DNA from: a virus
Lineage: Duplodnaviria > Heunggongvirae > Uroviricota > Caudoviricetes
Strand: one strand, 5' to 3'
DNA: 11,129 bases
Virus record (IMG/VR): IMGVR_UViG_2617270947_000015
A program made the translations under genes and the position numbers. Position 1 is the first letter of the stretch. Every line of letters starts with the position of its first letter. A model generated the notes under the pieces. The model did no database searches. It was not told where the DNA came from and worked only from the letters and a program-made list of their open reading frames with translations. Shown here piece by piece: positions 4,374 through 11,129 of the stretch.

Positions 4374-4600
4374 CTGTCTACCCTGTCTACCTGAGTAAAG
4401 AAAAATACATTTAATTCAGTGCATTAAGTTAGGTAGACAGCCTTTTTTTACTGTCTACCCACTATCTACCCTCTCTACCTGATTTTACCTGAATCAGACA
4501 GGGAGGTAGACACGGGGTAGATAGTGGATAAAAGCACTCTACCCCGCTGAAAGCCGCGCCATTACTGGCATGAGGGCCACTAAGGTAGATAAGGTAGACA
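4374..4600. repeat. Iteron array, putative replication origin
   Basis: At least 11 copies of an 8-mer TGTCTACC / GGTAGACA (variants TATCTACC, GGTAGATA, CTCTACC) in both orientations, e.g. 4376-4383, 4384-4391, 4432-4439, 4452-4459, 4463-4470, 4505-4512, 4517-4524, 4584-4591, 4593-4600. Non-coding and directly downstream of the primase-helicase gene. Confidence 0.8.
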
Positions 4601-4648: not shown

Positions 4649-4927
4649 ATGCACACTTCAGGGAAATTTAATAAATCACTCAAAAAACGCAGAGACAGAA
4701 CAGAACCGAAATATCGCGCGTTAGACATGACAGAGCACGCTTTAAAGGTGGCAATCAGAACGATAGACCGCCACGCGGGGGAAGGATACGCGAAAGCACA
4801 TCCCGAACTGATAAGCGCATTCATGACCACGACGGCGGCAAATTTTGCCACGCTGACAGAGCGGGAGATTGCCGAAGCGGAACAGGTAACAACCATCAAC
4901 GTTAAAACCGGAGAGGTGGAATCATGA
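4649..4927 (+). CDS. Hypothetical protein (92 aa)
   Basis: GAGGGGG upstream of the ATG at 4649. Its stop overlaps the SSB start (ATGA at 4924). Translation MHTSGKFNKSLKKRRDRTEPKYRALDMTEHALKVAIRTIDRHAGEGYAKAHPEL.... Confidence 0.55.
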   Translation: MHTSGKFNKSLKKRRDRTEPKYRALDMTEHALKVAIRTIDRHAGEGYAKAHPELISAFMTTTAANFATLTEREIAEAEQVTTINVKTGEVES

Positions 4928-5346
4928 CAGCACAGATAGCAGCTTACGGGCGGCTGGTGGACGACCCGCAGGTAAAACAGACCAGCAAGGGCACACCGAT
5001 GACGCTGGCGCGTATGGCGGTCCCCCTTCCGTGCAGCCAGGCAGATGACGGAACGGCGACGATGTGGTTATCCGTCCTGGCATTTGGCAGACAGGCCGAA
5101 GCACTGGAAAGGCACCGCAAGGGTGAACTCCTGAGCGTGGCGGGTAACATGCAGATCAGCCAGTGGACTGGGCAGAACGGAGAAACGCGGCAGGGCTGGC
5201 AGGTTATCGCAGACAGTGTAATCAGTGCGCGAACGGCGCGACTGGGCGGCAAAAAAGGTCAACAGGGCCAGGCTACTGACGCGCTGAACAGGGCAAAACA
5301 ACAGGCGGGGAATGATGATCCGTACGGGGATAACATACCGTTTTAA
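4924..5346 (+). CDS. ssb: Single-stranded DNA-binding protein (SSB-like, 140 aa)
   Basis: GGAGAGG Shine-Dalgarno. OB-fold-like core (LSVLAFGRQAEALERHRKGELLSVAGNMQISQWTGQNGETRQGWQVIADSV) followed by a Gly/Gln-rich linker and an acidic C-terminal tip DDPYGDNIPF, resembling the SSB DDDIPF tail. Confidence 0.8.
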   Translation: MTAQIAAYGRLVDDPQVKQTSKGTPMTLARMAVPLPCSQADDGTATMWLSVLAFGRQAEALERHRKGELLSVAGNMQISQWTGQNGETRQGWQVIADSVISARTARLGGKKGQQGQATDALNRAKQQAGNDDPYGDNIPF

Positions 5347-5362
5347 GCGACGAGAGACAGAA

Positions 5363-5384
5363 GCCGGAGCAATCCGGCTTTTTT
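5363..5384 (+). terminator. Rho-independent terminator after the replication operon
   Basis: Stem GCCGGA (5363-5368) / TCCGGC (5373-5378), loop GCAA, then TTTTTT (5379-5384). Nearly identical to the hairpin at 7804-7826. Confidence 0.7.
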
Positions 5385-5450
5385 ACGGGTCCTCCTGGCG
5401 GGGTGGGCCTGAACACGGGGCGGGAAGCGCGGAAAAAAGCGCATTTTTGT
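5385..5450 (+). other. Degenerate cos-like sequence (direct, diverged copy of the cos site at 7827-7900)
   Basis: ACGGGTCCT...ACGGGGCGGGAAGCGCGG...GCATTTTTG aligns with ACGGGTCCTTTCCGG...ACGGGGCGGCGACCTCGCGGGTTTTCGCTATTTATG of copy A, but with many substitutions inside the cosN-equivalent. Confidence 0.5.
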
Positions 5451-5565
5451 GATTTTATCGTCATCATCATCATGAGCGTAATTTATTGTTTTTAATTGTT
5501 TTGATGCAAAAAAGATGATGGTTGTGGTTAATTTTCGTTCGACATCTTTGCAGGCAGATAAAAAA

Positions 5566-5602
5566 GCCCGATAAGGTCAGAGGTGGCTTATCGGGCTTTT
5601 GC
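5566..5602. terminator. Strong hairpin flanked by A/T runs on both sides (potentially bidirectional terminator)
   Basis: Perfect 10-bp stem GCCCGATAAG (5567-5576) / CTTATCGGGC (5588-5597), preceded by AAAAAA and followed by TTTTG. It lies in a ~400-bp stretch with no convincing ORF. Confidence 0.6.
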
Positions 5603-5677
5603 ATATGAGGCTTTTTGGTGCACTGACACACATGAGCGGGATCATCATTTCATAATTTGCAACACAACTCAATATCA

Positions 5678-5726
5678 TTGCACAAAACGCAATCCTGATT
5701 ATAATCAGAGCTGGATGAACATCCAG
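5678..5726 (+). promoter_or_regulatory. Candidate promoter of the capsid operon with an operator palindrome at the predicted start
   Basis: TTGCAC (5678-5683), 16-bp spacer, perfect TATAAT (5700-5705). A perfect 7-2-7 palindrome CTGGATGAACATCCAG (5711-5726) follows immediately downstream of the -10. Confidence 0.5.
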
Positions 5727-5761
5727 TTATGATTTTTTAAGTCGAAGAGGAATTTCTTACT

Positions 5762-5968
5762 ATGGCTGAAGAGAAAAAAGGCGGTGTTTCGGTGTACATA
5801 AGCCCCGAAATCGTGGAGGTGCTCAAGCAGCGCCACAAAAAAAACTATGAGGCTGGCGTGGCGGCTGGACTGGATCCGCTGATGACGCCGGAGCCGTCGA
5901 TAGGTTCACTTGTACGCTCTTATTTACTTGCGGCGCTTGGGATGCATAAAAATTATGGGGGTGAATAA
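5762..5968 (+). CDS. Hypothetical small protein (68 aa), translationally coupled to the major capsid gene
   Basis: GAGGAA Shine-Dalgarno; its stop TAA overlaps the capsid gene ATG at 5968 (TAATGG). Translation MAEEKKGGVSVYISPEIVEVLKQRHKKNYEAGVAAGLDPLMTPEPSIGSLVRSYLLAALGMHKNYGGE. Confidence 0.55.
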   Translation: MAEEKKGGVSVYISPEIVEVLKQRHKKNYEAGVAAGLDPLMTPEPSIGSLVRSYLLAALGMHKNYGGE

Positions 5969-7023
5969 TGGCAGGCAAAGCAACGGCACTTAACACTAAC
6001 CAGCTTTTCATGTACCTGAATCGCGGGGATATTGCGGATTTTAAATTCAGCCCTCTGTTTACTACGCTGTTTTTCCCGAACGTGGCGACATTCAGCACGC
6101 AAAACATCATGCTGGATACCCTGGACATTGAAGAAGTCACCATGTCGGCGTTTTGTTCGCCTATGGTGGGTAGCCAGGTTCAGCGCGATAAAGGGTACGA
6201 AACCAGCACGATTAAACCTGGCTACATGAAGCCAAAGCACGAAATCGATCCAACGAAAACCATCATGCGCATGGCTGGAGAAGATCCGGCACAGCTTAAC
6301 GACCCTACCTATCGCCGTATGCGCCTGATTACTGGCAATATGCGCCGCCAGATAAACGCCATAAAAGCGCGCGTGGAATGGCTGGCGGTAAATGCGGTAA
6401 CGACCGGAAAAAACATCATTGAGGGCGAAGGCATAGAGCGCTATGAAATCGACTGGAAGATACCGGAAAAAAACATCATAGAGCAGGCCGACGGGAAAAA
6501 ATGGTCAGAGCAGGACAAAGAAACCCACGATCCAATCTATGATATCGAACTATACGCCGATCAGGCTGGTTGCCCCGCAAACGTCATGATTATGGGCGCT
6601 GAGGTATGGCGAACGTTACGCAGCTTTAAAAAATTCCGTGAGCTGTACGATCTTTCCCGTGGTTCAGAATCCGCCGCCGAACTGGCCTGTAAAAACCTGG
6701 GCGAAGTGGTGAGCTTTAAAGGCTATCTTGGTGATCTGGCCCTTATCGTCTATTCCGGCAAATACACTGACAGCGATGGTACCGAAAAATATTTCCTTGA
6801 GCCTGATTTGCTGGTCCTGGGCAACACCAACAATAAAGGGCTGGTGGCCTATGGTGCGATAATGGATCAGGAAGCGGTAAGAACGGGCGCAACACAAAAC
6901 ATGTTTTACCCGAAAAACTGGATTGAGGACGGCGATCCGGCGATTGAGTACGTGCAGACACACAGTGCACCGCAGCCGGTACCGGCAGATATTCGCAAAT
7001 TTGTTACCGTCAAAATTGGTTAA
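5968..7023 (+). CDS. Major capsid protein, lambda gpE-like (351 aa)
   Basis: Collinear similarity to lambda gpE as I recall it: FKFSPLF..LFF, TIKPGYMKPKHEIDP, EDPAQLNDPTYRRMR, KWSEQDKETHDP, LRSFK, SFKGYLGDLALIVYSGKY, LVLGNT, YPKNWIEDGDPA, with similar length. Strong GGGGGTGA Shine-Dalgarno. Confidence 0.85.
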   Translation: MAGKATALNTNQLFMYLNRGDIADFKFSPLFTTLFFPNVATFSTQNIMLDTLDIEEVTMSAFCSPMVGSQVQRDKGYETSTIKPGYMKPKHEIDPTKTIMRMAGEDPAQLNDPTYRRMRLITGNMRRQINAIKARVEWLAVNAVTTGKNIIEGEGIERYEIDWKIPEKNIIEQADGKKWSEQDKETHDPIYDIELYADQAGCPANVMIMGAEVWRTLRSFKKFRELYDLSRGSESAAELACKNLGEVVSFKGYLGDLALIVYSGKYTDSDGTEKYFLEPDLLVLGNTNNKGLVAYGAIMDQEAVRTGATQNMFYPKNWIEDGDPAIEYVQTHSAPQPVPADIRKFVTVKIG

Positions 7024-7035
7024 CGGGGGGATTCT

Positions 7036-7371
7036 ATGGACACTCCATACATTGAGTTATTTGCAGGCAGTCAGCAGGTCGCCACGACGCTGGTACATTT
7101 TGCCGCTGATGCTGGCGTTATTCAGGAATTTACCCCGCTGATGCTGGCAGACAATGGCGAGTTTAAGCCGTGGGATGGTCAGGAATCTGGCAAGGCTGTT
7201 TATCTGACCTCGTACCCTGTGGACACGTCAAAGCAGAAATCAGCACAGTGTTACAAGACGGGGATTTTCAATATTGCCGCCGTTAACTGGCCTGAGAGCG
7301 TCGACACCGATGCGAAAAAATGCGCCGCCTTTGCGGGTTCTGGCGTATCCGTTCAGCCGCTGGCCCGATAA
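7036..7371 (+). CDS. Head decoration protein, lambda gpD-like (111 aa)
   Basis: Same length class as lambda gpD with shared motifs TPLML, WDG, YKTGIF (lambda YKSGTF), WPE, DAKK.AAFAG. GGGGGG Shine-Dalgarno. Adjacent to the gpE-like gene. Confidence 0.75.
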   Translation: MDTPYIELFAGSQQVATTLVHFAADAGVIQEFTPLMLADNGEFKPWDGQESGKAVYLTSYPVDTSKQKSAQCYKTGIFNIAAVNWPESVDTDAKKCAAFAGSGVSVQPLAR

Positions 7372-7383
7372 GCAGGGGGAACG

Positions 7384-7797
7384 ATGGCAACGAATGAAAG
7401 CGTCATGACGCTACCGCTGGCGAGTAAATTTAAAGCCGAAGCGCGGGCAATGGCTGACAGAGGTTTATCAACCTACGAGGCCGTATATCAACTCAACAAA
7501 CTGGAAGAGCAGGACAAGCCGCGCGCTGATGCGATTATGGCGCTTCATGAACATAACGACTATCAGCCGCTGTTACGTGCAATGGCAAACGTGCCATGTA
7601 TTAGCGTCGATAATGCTCGTGAAATCCTGAACATGACCATAGAGCAGGAGCGCCCAAAGGTTGCGCCGGAGCTTACCGCAGCCTTTGAAAACTTTATGGA
7701 CATGCACAGCCCGAAAGCCGTATCACCCGGCATGGCATACGACGGCAGAAACCAGGGCGATGAAGGCGACGTCGATCGCATACTGAAAACCATCTGA
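7384..7797 (+). CDS. Hypothetical protein (137 aa), last gene of the capsid operon, immediately upstream of cos
   Basis: GGGGGAACG Shine-Dalgarno. Translation MATNESVMTLPLASKFKAEARAMADRGLSTYEAVYQLNKLEEQDKPRADAIMALHEHNDYQPLLRAMANVP.... The terminator hairpin and cos site follow directly. Confidence 0.6.
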   Translation: MATNESVMTLPLASKFKAEARAMADRGLSTYEAVYQLNKLEEQDKPRADAIMALHEHNDYQPLLRAMANVPCISVDNAREILNMTIEQERPKVAPELTAAFENFMDMHSPKAVSPGMAYDGRNQGDEGDVDRILKTI

Positions 7798-7803
7798 CAT
7801 AAG

Positions 7804-7826
7804 GCCGGAGAAATCCGGCTTTTTTT
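7804..7826 (+). terminator. Rho-independent terminator fused to the upstream edge of the cos site
   Basis: Stem GCCGGA (7804-7809) / TCCGGC (7814-7819), loop GAAA, then TTTTTTT (7820-7826). Confidence 0.7.
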
Positions 7827-7900
7827 ACGGGTCCTTTCCGGCATATGGACCCGTTACGGGGCGGCGACCTCGCGGGTTTTCGCTATTTATGACGTTTTTC
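7827..7900 (+). other. Lambda-type cos site (cosQ-cosN plus start of cosB), intact copy A
   Basis: ACGGGTCCTTTCCGG...GTTACG-GGGCGGCGACCTCGCGGGTTTTCGCTATTTATGA. The 12-nt lambda cohesive-end sequence GGGCGGCGACCT is exact at 7859-7870, and the flanks match the lambda right-end/left-end junction as I recall it. A Nu1-like gene follows, as in lambda. Confidence 0.85.
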
Positions 7901-7959
7901 CGTGAAGGTGACACCACCACCACTTGATTAATATTTAACCATGCGGTTAAGGTAACATT

Positions 7960-8400
7960 ATGATTGATAAAGCTTGTTTTGTAAGTCAGCAGGAAATAGC
8001 TGAACATTTCAAGGTTAACAGAACCACTATTCGCGCATGGACCAAACAGGGGATGCCGTATCTTAATGCGGATCGCGGAAAGTCTGGCGGTTATCACATC
8101 GGGCATACATTGCTTTGGTCTTCAGGTAAAAGCCGTCTTGAGGCCATCAGATATCACGTAGAAACCAGTGCGCTGGAAAAAATTATGTTTGCCAGGCTGC
8201 TTTCATCTGAGCGTGACGAGTACTCCAGTGAAGAAACAGAACATCGATTTGATGAAGGTTTGCAGATTTACGGCTATTCACCGGAAGATGTGAGCAAGGC
8301 ACGAAATAAAATGGCTGGCTTTCTGGCTGGGTGGCGTCATGCCGTAAGCGTTCGCCGTGCCAGCATGGAACAATCAGTCGTTACAGAACAGCAAAGTTAA
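7960..8400 (+). CDS. Small-terminase-like DNA-binding protein (lambda Nu1-like winged HTH N-terminus, 146 aa); candidate cos-recognition / packaging-redirection factor
   Basis: N-terminus VSQQEIAEHFKVNRTTIRAWTKQGMPYLNADRGKSGG aligns with lambda Nu1 VNKKQLADIFGASIRTIQNWQEQGMPVLRGGGKGN. It sits about 60 bp downstream of cos, in the lambda Nu1 position, but no large-terminase gene follows. Confidence 0.7.
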   Translation: MIDKACFVSQQEIAEHFKVNRTTIRAWTKQGMPYLNADRGKSGGYHIGHTLLWSSGKSRLEAIRYHVETSALEKIMFARLLSSERDEYSSEETEHRFDEGLQIYGYSPEDVSKARNKMAGFLAGWRHAVSVRRASMEQSVVTEQQS

Positions 8401-8580: not shown

Positions 8581-8595
8581 TCCCTCTAAAAAAGC

Positions 8596-8663
8596 TCATA
8601 AATAGCGAAAAACCGCGAGGTCGCCGCCCCGTAACGGGCCATAATTCCAGGAAGGACCCGACG
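8596..8663 (-). other. Second lambda-type cos site in inverted orientation (copy C)
   Basis: Minus-strand reading is GGGTCCTTCCTGGAATTATGGCCCGTTACG-GGGCGGCGACCTCGCGGTTTTTCGCTATTTATGA. The reverse complement of the 12-mer, AGGTCGCCGCCC, is at 8618-8629. About 65 bp are near-identical to copy A, but this copy lacks the upstream terminator hairpin. Confidence 0.8.
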
Positions 8664-8693: not shown

Positions 8694-8975
8694 ATGACAG
8701 AAGCCGAAATACTGCGATTAATCCGCCGCGTTGCCGGAATCAGCCAGCAGCATGACGAACAGGCCACGCAGCCGGACAGCGTGACCGCTGAAAATTATGT
8801 GCGTGTTGTTGCTGAGGTGATGCGCCGTGATGGTATCCAGCTTAATGATGTTGATATGCGCGACATACGGATCCGCGTTCTGGAAATGCTGGCCTACAAT
8901 CGCCGCGTTGAACTGTATCGGGAGAAAGAAAAAATAACGTACCACTGGAAGAAGCCGGAGCGGTTGCGGCGGTAA
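8694..8975 (+). CDS. Hypothetical protein (93 aa)
   Basis: GGGGG Shine-Dalgarno 5 nt upstream of the ATG. Translation MTEAEILRLIRRVAGISQQHDEQATQPDSVTAENYVRVVAEVMRRDGIQLNDVDMRDIRIRVLEMLAYNRR.... Confidence 0.55.
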   Translation: MTEAEILRLIRRVAGISQQHDEQATQPDSVTAENYVRVVAEVMRRDGIQLNDVDMRDIRIRVLEMLAYNRRVELYREKEKITYHWKKPERLRR

Positions 8976-9587
8976 CTGGTTGATATTTTCGAAATTCGCC
9001 AGCGGCGAACATCGGGGAAACCAGCCTAACCCGTTGATATTTTCGGAAACCTCAATTTGAGGAAGTCGGCGCGGTAACTCGCTGAACTTAAAGCAAAGCG
9101 CAAAATTGCGCTTGCTGAATAATCATTATGATTACGCAGATGATTAAGGAATGACCGAAGGCGGAAATTCGCCTGTGGTTAATGGGGGAGTTGCAGATCT
9201 GCAACTCGACCATGAAACTACGGAAACTACCCGTAGTTTGGGTAGTAAGAGTAACACCCAGATTTTGGGGCTTACTCGTGATACCCAAATTTGGGGTATC
9301 GGTGGCAACCATAACGACTTTCGTTACGGTTGATGCTTTTACCCCATTGGGGGAAAGGTATTACGATAATCATAACACCTACCGAACAGGTAAAGCCCAC
9401 CAGCCTGATTAACGTTTAACCGGAAAAAAATTCCGGTAGGTGGGGATCCCCATATAGACATTAACGCCCCTCATGAATTGGTGCGCTTCCCCCTGGAAAG
9501 ATGATCCGCCTGTATATTTCTTGTGTCTATTTGTTCCACGTTGTTTCATACGGTGCACCGAACGGTGTAGTTAATGGTGTAGTCAAT
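8966..9587. repeat. Repeat- and palindrome-dense non-coding region between the last island ORF and phoQ (candidate att arm / regulatory region)
   Basis: Direct repeats GTTGATATTTTCG(A/G)AA at 8979-8994 and 9033-9049; GCGGTAACT at 8968-8976 and 9071-9079. Palindromes AAGCGCAA-aa-TTGCGCTT (9096-9113), GTTGCAGATCTGCAAC (9190-9205), AAACTAC-cc-GTAGTTT (9224-9239), CCGGAA-aaaaa-TTCCGG (~9420-9437), CGGTGCACCG (9551-9560). Tandem GGTGTAGTTAAT / GGTGTAGTCAAT (9564-9587). Confidence 0.5.
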
Positions 9588-9668: not shown

Positions 9669-11129
9669 TTATTCATCTTTCGGCGCAGAATGCTGGCGAC
9701 CAAAAATCACCTCCATCCGCGCACCGCCCAGCATGCTCTCTCCGGCGACGATTTTACCCTCATATTGCTCGGTGATTTCGCGGGCTACCGCCAGCCCTAC
9801 ACCTTGCCCAGGGCGTAAAGTATCAACCCGTTGACCACGGTCGAAAATGACCTCTCGCTTGCTTAATGGAATACCGGGGCCATCATCCTCGACCACAATA
9901 TAGAGATGCTCGTCGGTTTGCCTTGCAGAAATTTCGACAAACTCGAGGCAATATTTACAGGCATTATCCAGCACGTTGCCCATCACCTCGACAAAATCGT
10001 TCTGCTCACCGACAAAGCTGATCTCTGGCGAAATATCGAGAGAGATATTGACCCCTTTGCGTTGATACACTTTGTTCAGCGCTGAGGTGAGATTGTCCAG
10101 CAGTGGGGCGACCGGATGCAGCTCGCGGCTGAGCAATGTCCCGCCGCGCATACTGGCACGATGCAGGTAGTAGCCAATTTGCTGTGAAATGCGGCTGATT
10201 TGCTCCAGCATTACCGGCTCAGCATCACTGACGCTCATCTTTTCACTACGCAGAGAACGCAGCGTACTTTGCAGCACCGCCAGTGGCGTTTTCAGACTAT
10301 GGGTCAGGTCGGTGAGCGTCGTACGGTATTTGTCGTAACGTTCGCGTTCACTTTTTAACAATCGGTTCAGGTTTCGTACCAGACTGGTCAGTTCTCGCGT
10401 TGTGGCTGGATTGAGCAATTCGCGGTTATGTTCTTCCAGTTCGCGGACTTCTTTTGCCAGGGCTTCGATGGGGCGTAAACTCCACCAGGCGGCGACCCAC
10501 AGCAGCGGGATCACTAACAGCAGATTGGCTGAGAGCACATAGATAAACCAGCTCCAGACCATATAGGAACTTTTTAGCTCCACCGGAATGGTATCCACCA
10601 CCACAATGGTTAATTTTGGCATCCGCGATGTTGCCGGGTAGACGTTTACTGCCACCGAGTGGGTCATCTCCGCGTCGTCATCATCTTCCCGCACTTCCTG
10701 CAACTGTTGCTGTATCGAATGATCTCCACTCAGCAAGAGGCTGGTATCGTTAACATCCGCTTCAATTTCATGAAAACCATTCGATTTCAGCCAGTCAGGC
10801 TGGATCATCTTCATCAGCCAGGGCACGTCACGTTGCGCCCATAAAAGCTGCCCGTTCTCATCATAAATTAGCGTCATGGTGGGGCTTTGCTTGTCGATAT
10901 TTTCGGGTAACTCGACATGCAACTTATTGTTTTCCCACTTCGCAAGGGTATAGAACAGATTGCTCTCGCCACGTAACAGCCGAAACGTAGTTTTATCGAA
11001 ACTGACGCTATAACCGATCAGCGCGACCATTCCGTAGGCAAGCGAAAGCACCAGTACTACCGCTGCCGTTGCCAACAGAAAACGTACCCGCAGCGAGAGC
11101 GGGAAAAAAAGACGCAGTAATTTTTTCAT
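9669..11129 (-). CDS. phoQ: Sensor histidine kinase PhoQ of the PhoP/PhoQ two-component system, complete, 486 aa
   Basis: Translation [83 protein letters not shown]...HSAPKDE matches E. coli PhoQ: two transmembrane segments, periplasmic sensor domain, HAMP, DHp histidine box ([12 protein letters not shown]) and HATPase domain. The start codon is the last three bases of the window. Confidence 0.97.

Follow-up and report, generated by a model that had tools for sequence, protein, structure and literature searches.

An additional lambda-like cos site of the DUF1441-terminase phage type between ssb and the capsid operon of an EcCICFT073-type PICI

More than one cos site can occur in a single Escherichia coli satellite. 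In EcCICFT073, cos1 and cos2 combine lambda-like cosQ and cosN with a non-phage cosB, and an Rpp-TerS heterocomplex recognises cos1 (PMC6092414, PMC6739421, PMC9026076). The two sites differ in cosB and both function, and deletion of cos2 raises lambda-mediated transfer (PMC6092414). Other satellites, SaPIbov5 and HE-PICI 11capE, carry a near-copy of the helper cos and are packageable by the unmodified terminase (PMC10111431, PMC6092414); in 11capE, the stretch common to satellite and helper at cos is 258 bp long and 90% identical (PMC10111431). Among the lambda-like cos classes (lambda, 21, phi80, N15, gifsy-1 and mEp213), bp 7-12 of cosN are variable and cosB is specific to the small terminase (PMC4669245, PMC12315714), whereas cosQ is reported to be invariant among lambda-like phages (PMC4669245).

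We analysed a window of 11,129 nt, meaning the whole stretch of DNA under study, which belongs to an EcCICFT073-type Gram-negative cos PICI integrated between roxA and phoQ. The element shows the unidirectional int-alpA-pri/ori-capsid E/D-rpp order, the cos1 and cos2 pair and the roxA-phoQ site that define this type. The genes int and alpA are visible in the near-identical locus L001, and the window begins 3' of both; it holds genes for a DUF4222 protein, a D5-type primase, ssb, a capsid operon and rpp (Table 1). A genome search found near-identical islands in many E. coli genomes, and the capsid operon in 590 of 5,426 complete ones. EcCICFT073 (Fillol-Salom et al. 2018, 2019; Murialdo & Feiss 2022), the CFT073 prototype island and locus L098 in our comparisons, is of the same family and occupies the same site. 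The cos1, rpp and cos2 of the window are its published elements, and the rpp ATG lies 102 nt past the cosN start, in agreement with the published description (PMC9026076). Each of the two islands carries more than one cos site, and these share a lambda-like cosQ and cosN but differ in cosB. EcCICFT073, however, has no third cos, and its two terminators abut. In the window a third site, which we call cosS, lies directly after ssb, giving three cos types: an S1 phage type (cosS), an Rpp type (cos1) and a third type (cos2).

Table 1. Features of the window around the three cos sites.
Feature	Coordinates	Strand	Evidence or remarks
ssb, final gene of the replication module, directly 5' of the cosS element	4924..5346	+	Pfam SSB, E 4.9e-15; annotated ssb in L001
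Intrinsic-terminator hairpin GCCGGAGCAATCCGGC + T6	5363..5384	+	folds at -16 kcal/mol, z -3.8
cosS, lambda-like cos of the DUF1441-terS/gpA-terL lambdoid prophage type, cosB subtype S1	5385..5549	+	87-90% identity over 169-170 bp to Stx/VT1-Sakai phage cos regions
cosQ of cosS, GGGTCCT	5387..5393	+	7/7 vs lambda cosQ; spaced-motif search, four-way alignment with lambda
cosN-equivalent of cosS, CG/GGGCGGGAAGCG/CG	5416..5431	+	left half and both flanking CG intact
cosB-like region of cosS, common to S1-type helper phages	5432..5549	+	CATCATCATCAT at 5462-5473; inverted GATGATGG at 5514-5521; ends with GTTCGACATCTTT at 5537-5549
Second terminator hairpin (AAAAAAGCCCGATAAGG...CTTATCGGGCTTTT), right edge of the cosS insertion	5555..5607	+	inverted repeat, -25.5 kcal/mol, z -4.2
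Capsid operon: 68-aa ORF, lambda gpE-like major capsid protein, gpD-like decoration protein, 137-aa ORF	5762..7797	+	Pfam Phage_cap_E 5.9e-52, HDPD 1.3e-17
Terminator hairpin GCCGGAGAAATCCGGC + T7, 3' of the capsid operon	7804..7826	+	repeat search and folding
cos1: lambda-type cosQ (7829-7835) and cosN GGGCGGCGACCT (7859-7870), PICI-specific Rpp-recognised cosB	7827..7959	+	near-identical to EcCICFT073 cos1
rpp (redirecting phage packaging protein)	7960..8400	+	PDB 6HLK RppC match, E 5.7e-31
cos2: inverted lambda-type cos, third cosB type; cosQ 8653-8659, cosN 8618-8629	8589..8660	-	86% complementary to cos1
phoQ	9669..11129	-	

The pattern GGGTCCT-N19-22-ACGGGGCGG occurs exactly three times in the window, at 5387-5423 (+), 7829-7864 (+) and 8624-8659 (-), with none expected from 200 shuffles. 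The first occurrence has the parts of a lambda-like cos. Its cosQ lies within the usual distance of about 20-30 bp 5' of cosN, and a four-way alignment with lambda recovers the exact cosQ, CG/GGGCGG and a CG past the predicted 12-nt end, so that the GGGCGG left half and CG flanking both nick sites (PMC4669245) are present, as they are throughout the lambda-like classes. With the nicks placed by register with lambda, the 12-nt cohesive end is predicted at 5418-5429. The segment 5432-5549 aligns with the region 5' of the DUF1441 terS in 28 S1-type phage copies, and it is the predicted binding region for the matching small terminase. What cosS lacks are the features of an Rpp-dependent, cos1-type site, namely a non-helper cosB with the proposed R3-PICI at bp 48-65 (..GGTGACACCACCACCAC..) placed 5' of rpp. 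Its cosB is the phage's own, no rpp follows it on the 3' side, and there is just a loose (CAN)n triplet-run likeness at the equivalent position. At cosS, ACGGGTCCT and ACGGGGCGG are 30 nt apart, versus 29 in lambda and cos1.

Triplet-repeat runs, (CAN)n or the complement, are found in all cosB types that we compared, 44-65 nt past the cosN start and at the position of lambda R3. They read CACCACCACCAC in cos1 (7912-7923), CATCATCATCAT in S1 (5462-5473), CACCATCACCACC in S2 (a second subtype, see below), GGTGGTGGTGGTGG in the O157 cos1 (L002, about 9335-9350) and TTCTTCTTC at the lambda left end (bp ~55-65).

The original prediction took 5363-5450 for a degenerate duplicate of the hairpin and cos1 unit at 7804-7900 with a heavily mutated cosN, and suggested that the capsid operon was acquired or duplicated as a cos-bounded cassette or that the direct repeats are kept for recombination; in the form examined here, the cassette is gained or lost by recombination between the repeats. 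The resemblance is real. Both places have the same hairpin, the exact cosQ and the exact cosN left half, both elements lie on the + strand, and as direct copies they flank the capsid operon. Hairpin, T-run and ACGGGTCCT together make a near-perfect direct repeat of 31-32 nt (5363-5393 and 7804-7835). Aligned pairwise, the two units are indeed similar beyond the hairpin, but the similarity stops in the middle of cosN: identity is 28/40 from cosQ to the cosN left half, 15/36 (42%) after it and 64/99 over the whole unit. A Smith-Waterman alignment of the cos portions alone scored 18, a value reached by 686 of 5,000 shuffles; two short exact blocks make up the similarity, and the spaced-pattern test given above (200 shuffles) was used in its place.

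Past the cosN left half, the closest relatives of this element are elsewhere. In its cosN right half and over roughly 120 bp of cosB it has the sequence of DUF1441-terS lambdoid and Stx prophages, and 5385-5549 matches S-type phage and PICI cos sites (S-type denoting the DUF1441 terminase kind) at 87-95% over ~165-170 bp, with about 90% identity to the S-type phage cos over 170 bp compared with 42% to cos1. The element therefore extends to about 5549 and does not end at 5450, and what looked like mutation is a match to another, intact cos family in a half-site that varies naturally. Deletion between the repeats (5394-7835) would leave an ssb-hairpin-ACGGGTCCT-cos1 junction, and a chimeric query of that structure matched none of the 5,426 complete E. 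coli genomes at a coverage of at least 80%, which leaves a precise excisable cassette, or recombination between the repeats, unsupported. One base would fit some sequence exchange at the left end: cosQ position -2 is A in the window cosS, as in cos1 and lambda, and G in S-type phages. On balance we regard duplication of cos1, with the cassette that goes with it, as very improbable.

The phage source of cosS can be identified from its relatives. Searching complete E. coli genomes with 5347-5560 returned matches of about 170 bp at 86-90% identity in lambdoid prophages, between the lysis genes (Rz) and a DUF1441-family terS; an O157:H7 lambdoid prophage and an Stx2c prophage are among them. In the phage collection, the cosS segment matched VT1-Sakai and several Stx2a and Stx2d phages, so that both Stx1 and Stx2 phages are represented, and many Stx1- and Stx2-converting phages have this terminase type. 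The large terminase of S-type phages has GpA_ATPase and GpA_nuclease domains, as in lambda gpA, whereas the small terminase is DUF1441 (PHROG 141) and not Nu1. A gpA-type large subunit with a DUF1441 small subunit accounts for a shared cosQ and cosN left half together with a different cosB. By sequence comparison, then, cosS is shown to derive from lambdoid prophages with this pairing. Homology to the phages runs from 2 nt 5' of cosQ to the last of the conserved cosB blocks; judged by these boundaries, the island keeps just the functional cos unit, trimmed to cosQ through cosB.

Note that the S-type phage cos is itself described as putative, having been assigned by homology to lambda (PMC2669165), and that all phage matches are prophage-derived or circularly permuted records, none with physical ends at cosS. 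In natural functional lambda-like sites, selection acts only on cosQ, the left half and the flanking CGs, which are conserved, and bp 7-12 vary freely; changes at bp 7-12 had no measurable effect on cleavage in the work of Feiss and colleagues (PMC4669245). By that pattern, the apparently mutated cosN is the normal signature of a different cos type, not of decay. These putative S-type sites differ from lambda in a cosQ-cosN spacing that is 1 nt longer.

The hairpin has a separate origin from the cos, with which it had been taken to form one unit. Hairpin GCCGGAGNAATCCGGC with its T-run occurs at only two sites in the window, 5363-5384 and 7804-7825 (none expected, 200 shuffles). The copies match at 21/22 positions ungapped, and at 21/23 for hairpin and T-run in the pairwise alignment. 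A consensus terminator scan listed neither, although both fold as strong U-tailed stem-loops. The EcCICFT073 and O157 islands also carry the 5363 hairpin at the corresponding junction, where no cos follows it; its T-run is joined there via 7 nt to the next terminator. Relative to these islands, the window has 175 bp (5385-5559) between the two terminators; this is its window-specific insertion relative to EcCICFT073. The hairpin is thus part of the junction, and cosS was inserted separately, which also argues against a copy of the hairpin-cos1 unit. The polymorphism among islands is the 175-bp indel, not the capsid operon. Judged from these alignments, the 5363 hairpin is the island's reusable module-junction terminator and lies outside the phage-derived cos; its presence at both junctions is one reason why cosS resembles the cos1 unit.

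The same terminator and T-run are reused at junctions in the window (5363-5384, 7804-7826), in L002 (6608, 6972 and 9245) and in L098 (15232 and 17504). Such a reused GC-rich hairpin may serve as a recombination joint within or between islands. Every cosQ that we examined lies directly 3' of a hairpin or palindrome with a T-run, and it is the arrangement that is kept, not the hairpin sequence: lambda has GATAATCATTATC-ACTTTAC (48450-48479, L003), S-type phages have TGATAACCATTATCA-TTTTGC (L005, about 5985-6015) and PICIs have the GC-rich terminator.

We surveyed relatives by scanning IMG/VR with an exact 20-mer from inside cosS, which returned 90 DNA stretches. Together with the earlier loci and the window, 101 cosS copies had enough flanking sequence to be classified. 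Phage context, in the order Rz, cosS, terS (DUF1441), terL, accounts for 57 of these. A further 23 lie directly after the ssb hairpin of PICIs, and 20 follow a different terminator, 3' of a ClpP-protease/capsid fusion gene, also in PICIs; the remaining copy, in the ssb slot of L095, was not classed by hairpin. Four island architectures can be told apart. Type I, that of the window, reads ssb-cosS-capsid(E/D)-cos1-rpp-cos2; type II reads ssb/perC-ClpP_MCP-cosS; type III reads ssb-cosS-ClpP_MCP-cosS; and type IV (EcCICFT073, O157), without cosS, reads ssb-perC-hairpin-capsid(E/D)-cos1-...-cos2. O157 strains are rich in S-type prophages, yet their island version has no cosS, a point against the packaging role favoured below. 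The hairpin-cosS(S1) arrangement occurs in about 307 of the 5,426 complete E. coli genomes; set against the 590 genomes with the capsid operon, roughly half of such islands carry cosS.

Phage cosS sites fall into two cosB subtypes, S1 (CATCATCATCAT...) and S2 (CACCATCACCACC...), each paired with one of two terS variants that are ~78% identical in protein. Both subtypes occur among the ssb-adjacent PICI copies. All 17 ssb-adjacent S1 copies (from IMG/VR, L001 and the window) are in islands of the lambda-capsid type, with a lambda-type cos on the 3' side wherever the contig reaches far enough. In type III islands (L020, L035, L042, L065, L087, L093 and L095), two direct cosS copies about 2.54 kb apart flank the ClpP-protease/capsid fusion gene; the ssb-adjacent copy is S2 in 7/7, and the downstream copy is S1 in the 6/6 that are complete (that of L042 ends at the contig end). 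The type of cos in the ssb slot is thus never that of the main cos, differing in 24/24 islands sampled. Related islands repeat the arrangement of cos, capsid gene(s) and cos with a capsid module that is not homologous. Most simply read, the junction of the replication and late modules is a slot for cos sites, a slot that mirrors the phage order with cos 5' of the head genes.

ClpP-MCP-type islands in seven loci (L012, L018, L034, L060, L085, L095 and L097) lie directly 5' of a prophage terL, and these appear to be helper-embedded PICIs in or beside the terminase genes of S-type prophages. Some 147 E. coli records match the 113-nt consensus of hairpin and cosS with at most 1 mismatch, among them Nissle 1917 (NZ_CP022686.1, 944750-944862; 100% match), which presumably has an island of this type.

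Whether cosS is maintained or decaying can be judged against the phage copies. The consensus of ssb-adjacent PICI S1 copies differs from the phage consensus in 19 columns, of which 17 fall among the 34 columns that vary in phages. Thirteen distinct phage S1 cos sequences share 114 invariant columns, of which only 2 changed and 112 are kept (Fisher test leaving out the 20 columns of the ascertainment 20-mer, P = 3.6e-11). Across 17 type I islands (15 distinct sequences), nucleotide diversity is 0.010-0.012 in cosS, compared with 0.09 at third codon positions of ssb and 0.17 at those of p68 (the 68-aa ORF, 5762-5968), which places cosS about 9-fold below the flanking synonymous sites; the 20-mer lies inside the cosQ-cosN and whole-cosS windows of this comparison, and only the cosB window (0.010) is free of it. 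Low diversity of this kind could also reflect recent spread by recombination, not selection.

The cosN core has diverged in a consistent way. Sampled phages have GGGCGGGCGGCG or a form of it lengthened by at least one base, the core length varying from 12 to 14 nt among natural S-type copies, whereas most islands carry GGGCGGGAGGCG. Position 8, C in phages, is A in 21 of the 23 ssb-adjacent copies and in the ssb-slot copy of L095. The window core, GGGCGGGAAGCG, has an additional G-to-A at position 9, so that positions 8-9 read AA where the phage consensus has CG, and at these positions no sampled phage copy matches it. Of the capsid-adjacent PICI copies, 19 of 20 retain the phage core. In addition, cosQ is mutated in 3/23 ssb-adjacent copies (GGGTTCT twice, GGGGCCT once) and in no phage, which hints at somewhat relaxed constraint.

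These deviations would fit a recent, non-functional hitchhiker, in which an ssb-hairpin-cosS block from an island with an S-type cos was joined to the lambda-type capsid-cos1-rpp-cos2 module and has since stayed nearly intact, unused and slowly decaying. The block has clearly been shuffled, since the same ssb-hairpin-cosS junction precedes two unrelated capsid modules, and around half of the islands with the capsid operon, EcCICFT073 included, do without cosS and are still mobile (PMC6092414). However, decay should not spare the phage-invariant columns as it does here, nor leave diversity so far below that of the flanking synonymous sites; cosS is also cut exactly to cosQ through cosB, and a passive remnant does not predict that the ssb-slot type should differ from the main cos in every island sampled. 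We consider such a remnant unlikely, if a more serious contender than duplication of cos1.

We favour, with some reservation, a role for cosS as an extra packaging site for helpers with DUF1441-type TerS and gpA-type TerL, independent of Rpp and widening the helper range. From its identity, context, distribution and conservation we infer how it would be cleaved and packaged, and by which helpers. EcCICFT073-type cos1 needs Rpp, its cosB being unlike that of the helper, whereas cosS keeps the phage's own cosB; the unmodified S-type terminase could thus bind it directly, and such helpers could package the island without Rpp. The terminase would nick the cosN-like site at the predicted positions 5418/5429, and the replicated island concatemer would then be packaged rightward from cosS. 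Rpp and cos1 would in this way serve mobilisation by lambda-, phi80- or 21-type helpers, and cosS that by S-type helpers, so that helper phages of more than one kind can probably package this satellite. Competition between island and S-type phage DNA for terminase would be a probable further effect.

Competition could even be the point. PICIs typically pair packaging with helper interference (PMC6739421), and cosS might be kept as a decoy that titrates or misdirects S-type terminase on a multicopy replicon, or as a site for termination. For termination, lambda-like phages require cosQ and cosN, whereas cosB need not match and the right half of cosN may vary (PMC4669245); cosQ and the cosN left half are the best-kept parts of cosS. 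Yet conservation of the whole cosB of ~120 bp, which only initiation requires, is no less strict than in phages. A pure terminator, or a decoy for the large terminase, needs no cosB, and a decoy that binds the small terminase would be packaged too. A decoy or termination element is therefore improbable in our view.

As an extra packaging site, cosS raises the question of how cross-termination in concatemers is avoided between cos sites that share an orientation but not a cohesive end. Because termination ignores cosB (PMC4669245), a terminase that started at cos1 could end at the co-oriented cosS and leave mismatched cohesive ends; by extension from the same work, such termination could be costly. 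It may or may not be blocked by the extra 1 nt between cosQ and cosN of S-type sites.

Multiple cos sites in EcCICFT073 and satellites with a helper cos are already published, and what is new here is a third cos of heterologous type, not a new principle. The literature that we searched describes no third cos in these islands that stems from a different terminase family. Relative to the EcCICFT073 cos sites, the right half of the cosS cohesive end is not that of lambda, and the cognate small terminase is DUF1441 and not of the Nu1 family. In having the helper's own cos, the window resembles SaPIbov5 and 11capE as far as its sequence goes; unlike in those satellites, this cos is an additional site beside a complete Rpp system of another terminase specificity.

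Helper range decides which phages spread these islands and their accessory genes. If cosS works, about 300 of the 5,426 complete E. coli genomes, including Nissle 1917, hold islands that common DUF1441-terminase lambdoid phages could mobilise. Such phages include Stx1- and Stx2-converting phages, and the direct, Rpp-independent route would stand beside the published Rpp route. The comparison of phages and islands is also a natural dissection of the S-type cos, showing which ~170 bp are kept and which positions vary. More tentatively, and with less confidence than we place in the packaging role itself, these E. coli satellites may maintain, at terminator-bounded junctions, a small set of cos sites that differ in cosB specificity. 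The ssb slot would then hold a horizontally acquired, minimal phage cos (~170 bp) that always complements the main cos, and several terminase families, including those of Stx-converting phages, could package one island without an Rpp for each.

Several minor features of these islands were also recorded. Iteron-like direct and inverted repeats (CTGTCTACCCTGTCTACCTGA and relatives) at 4374-4600, just 3' of the primase gene, are probably the replication origin of the island. The 137-aa ORF at the end of the capsid operon (7384-7797) has a weak match (E 2.3e-9) to the C-terminal part of the head-maturation-protease family phrog_53, and it may be a scaffold-like domain. A conserved 93-aa ORF (p93, 8694-8975), which comes after the last cos in all these islands, was considered as a terS or Rpp analogue for DUF1441 terminases and rejected, having no such similarity and no Pfam hit. 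Between the last island ORF and phoQ lies an inverted repeat (9228-9298) with 33-nt arms, 76% complementary, and a 5-nt spacer, which may be att-related. The cosB of cos2 differs from island to island (window, 8589-8660, -; L002, 10177, -; L098, 18309, -). That of the window (GGTTGTTGTTTAATTG...CAATACAACAACC) resembles the O157-island cos1 (L002, 9299, +), which sits 5' of an island-borne Nu1-type terS; the O157-island cos2 has a lambda-R3-like cosB (GATCCGATCTTCTTCT), and EcCICFT073 cos2 has yet another. The islands thus seem to hold differing sets of cosB types.
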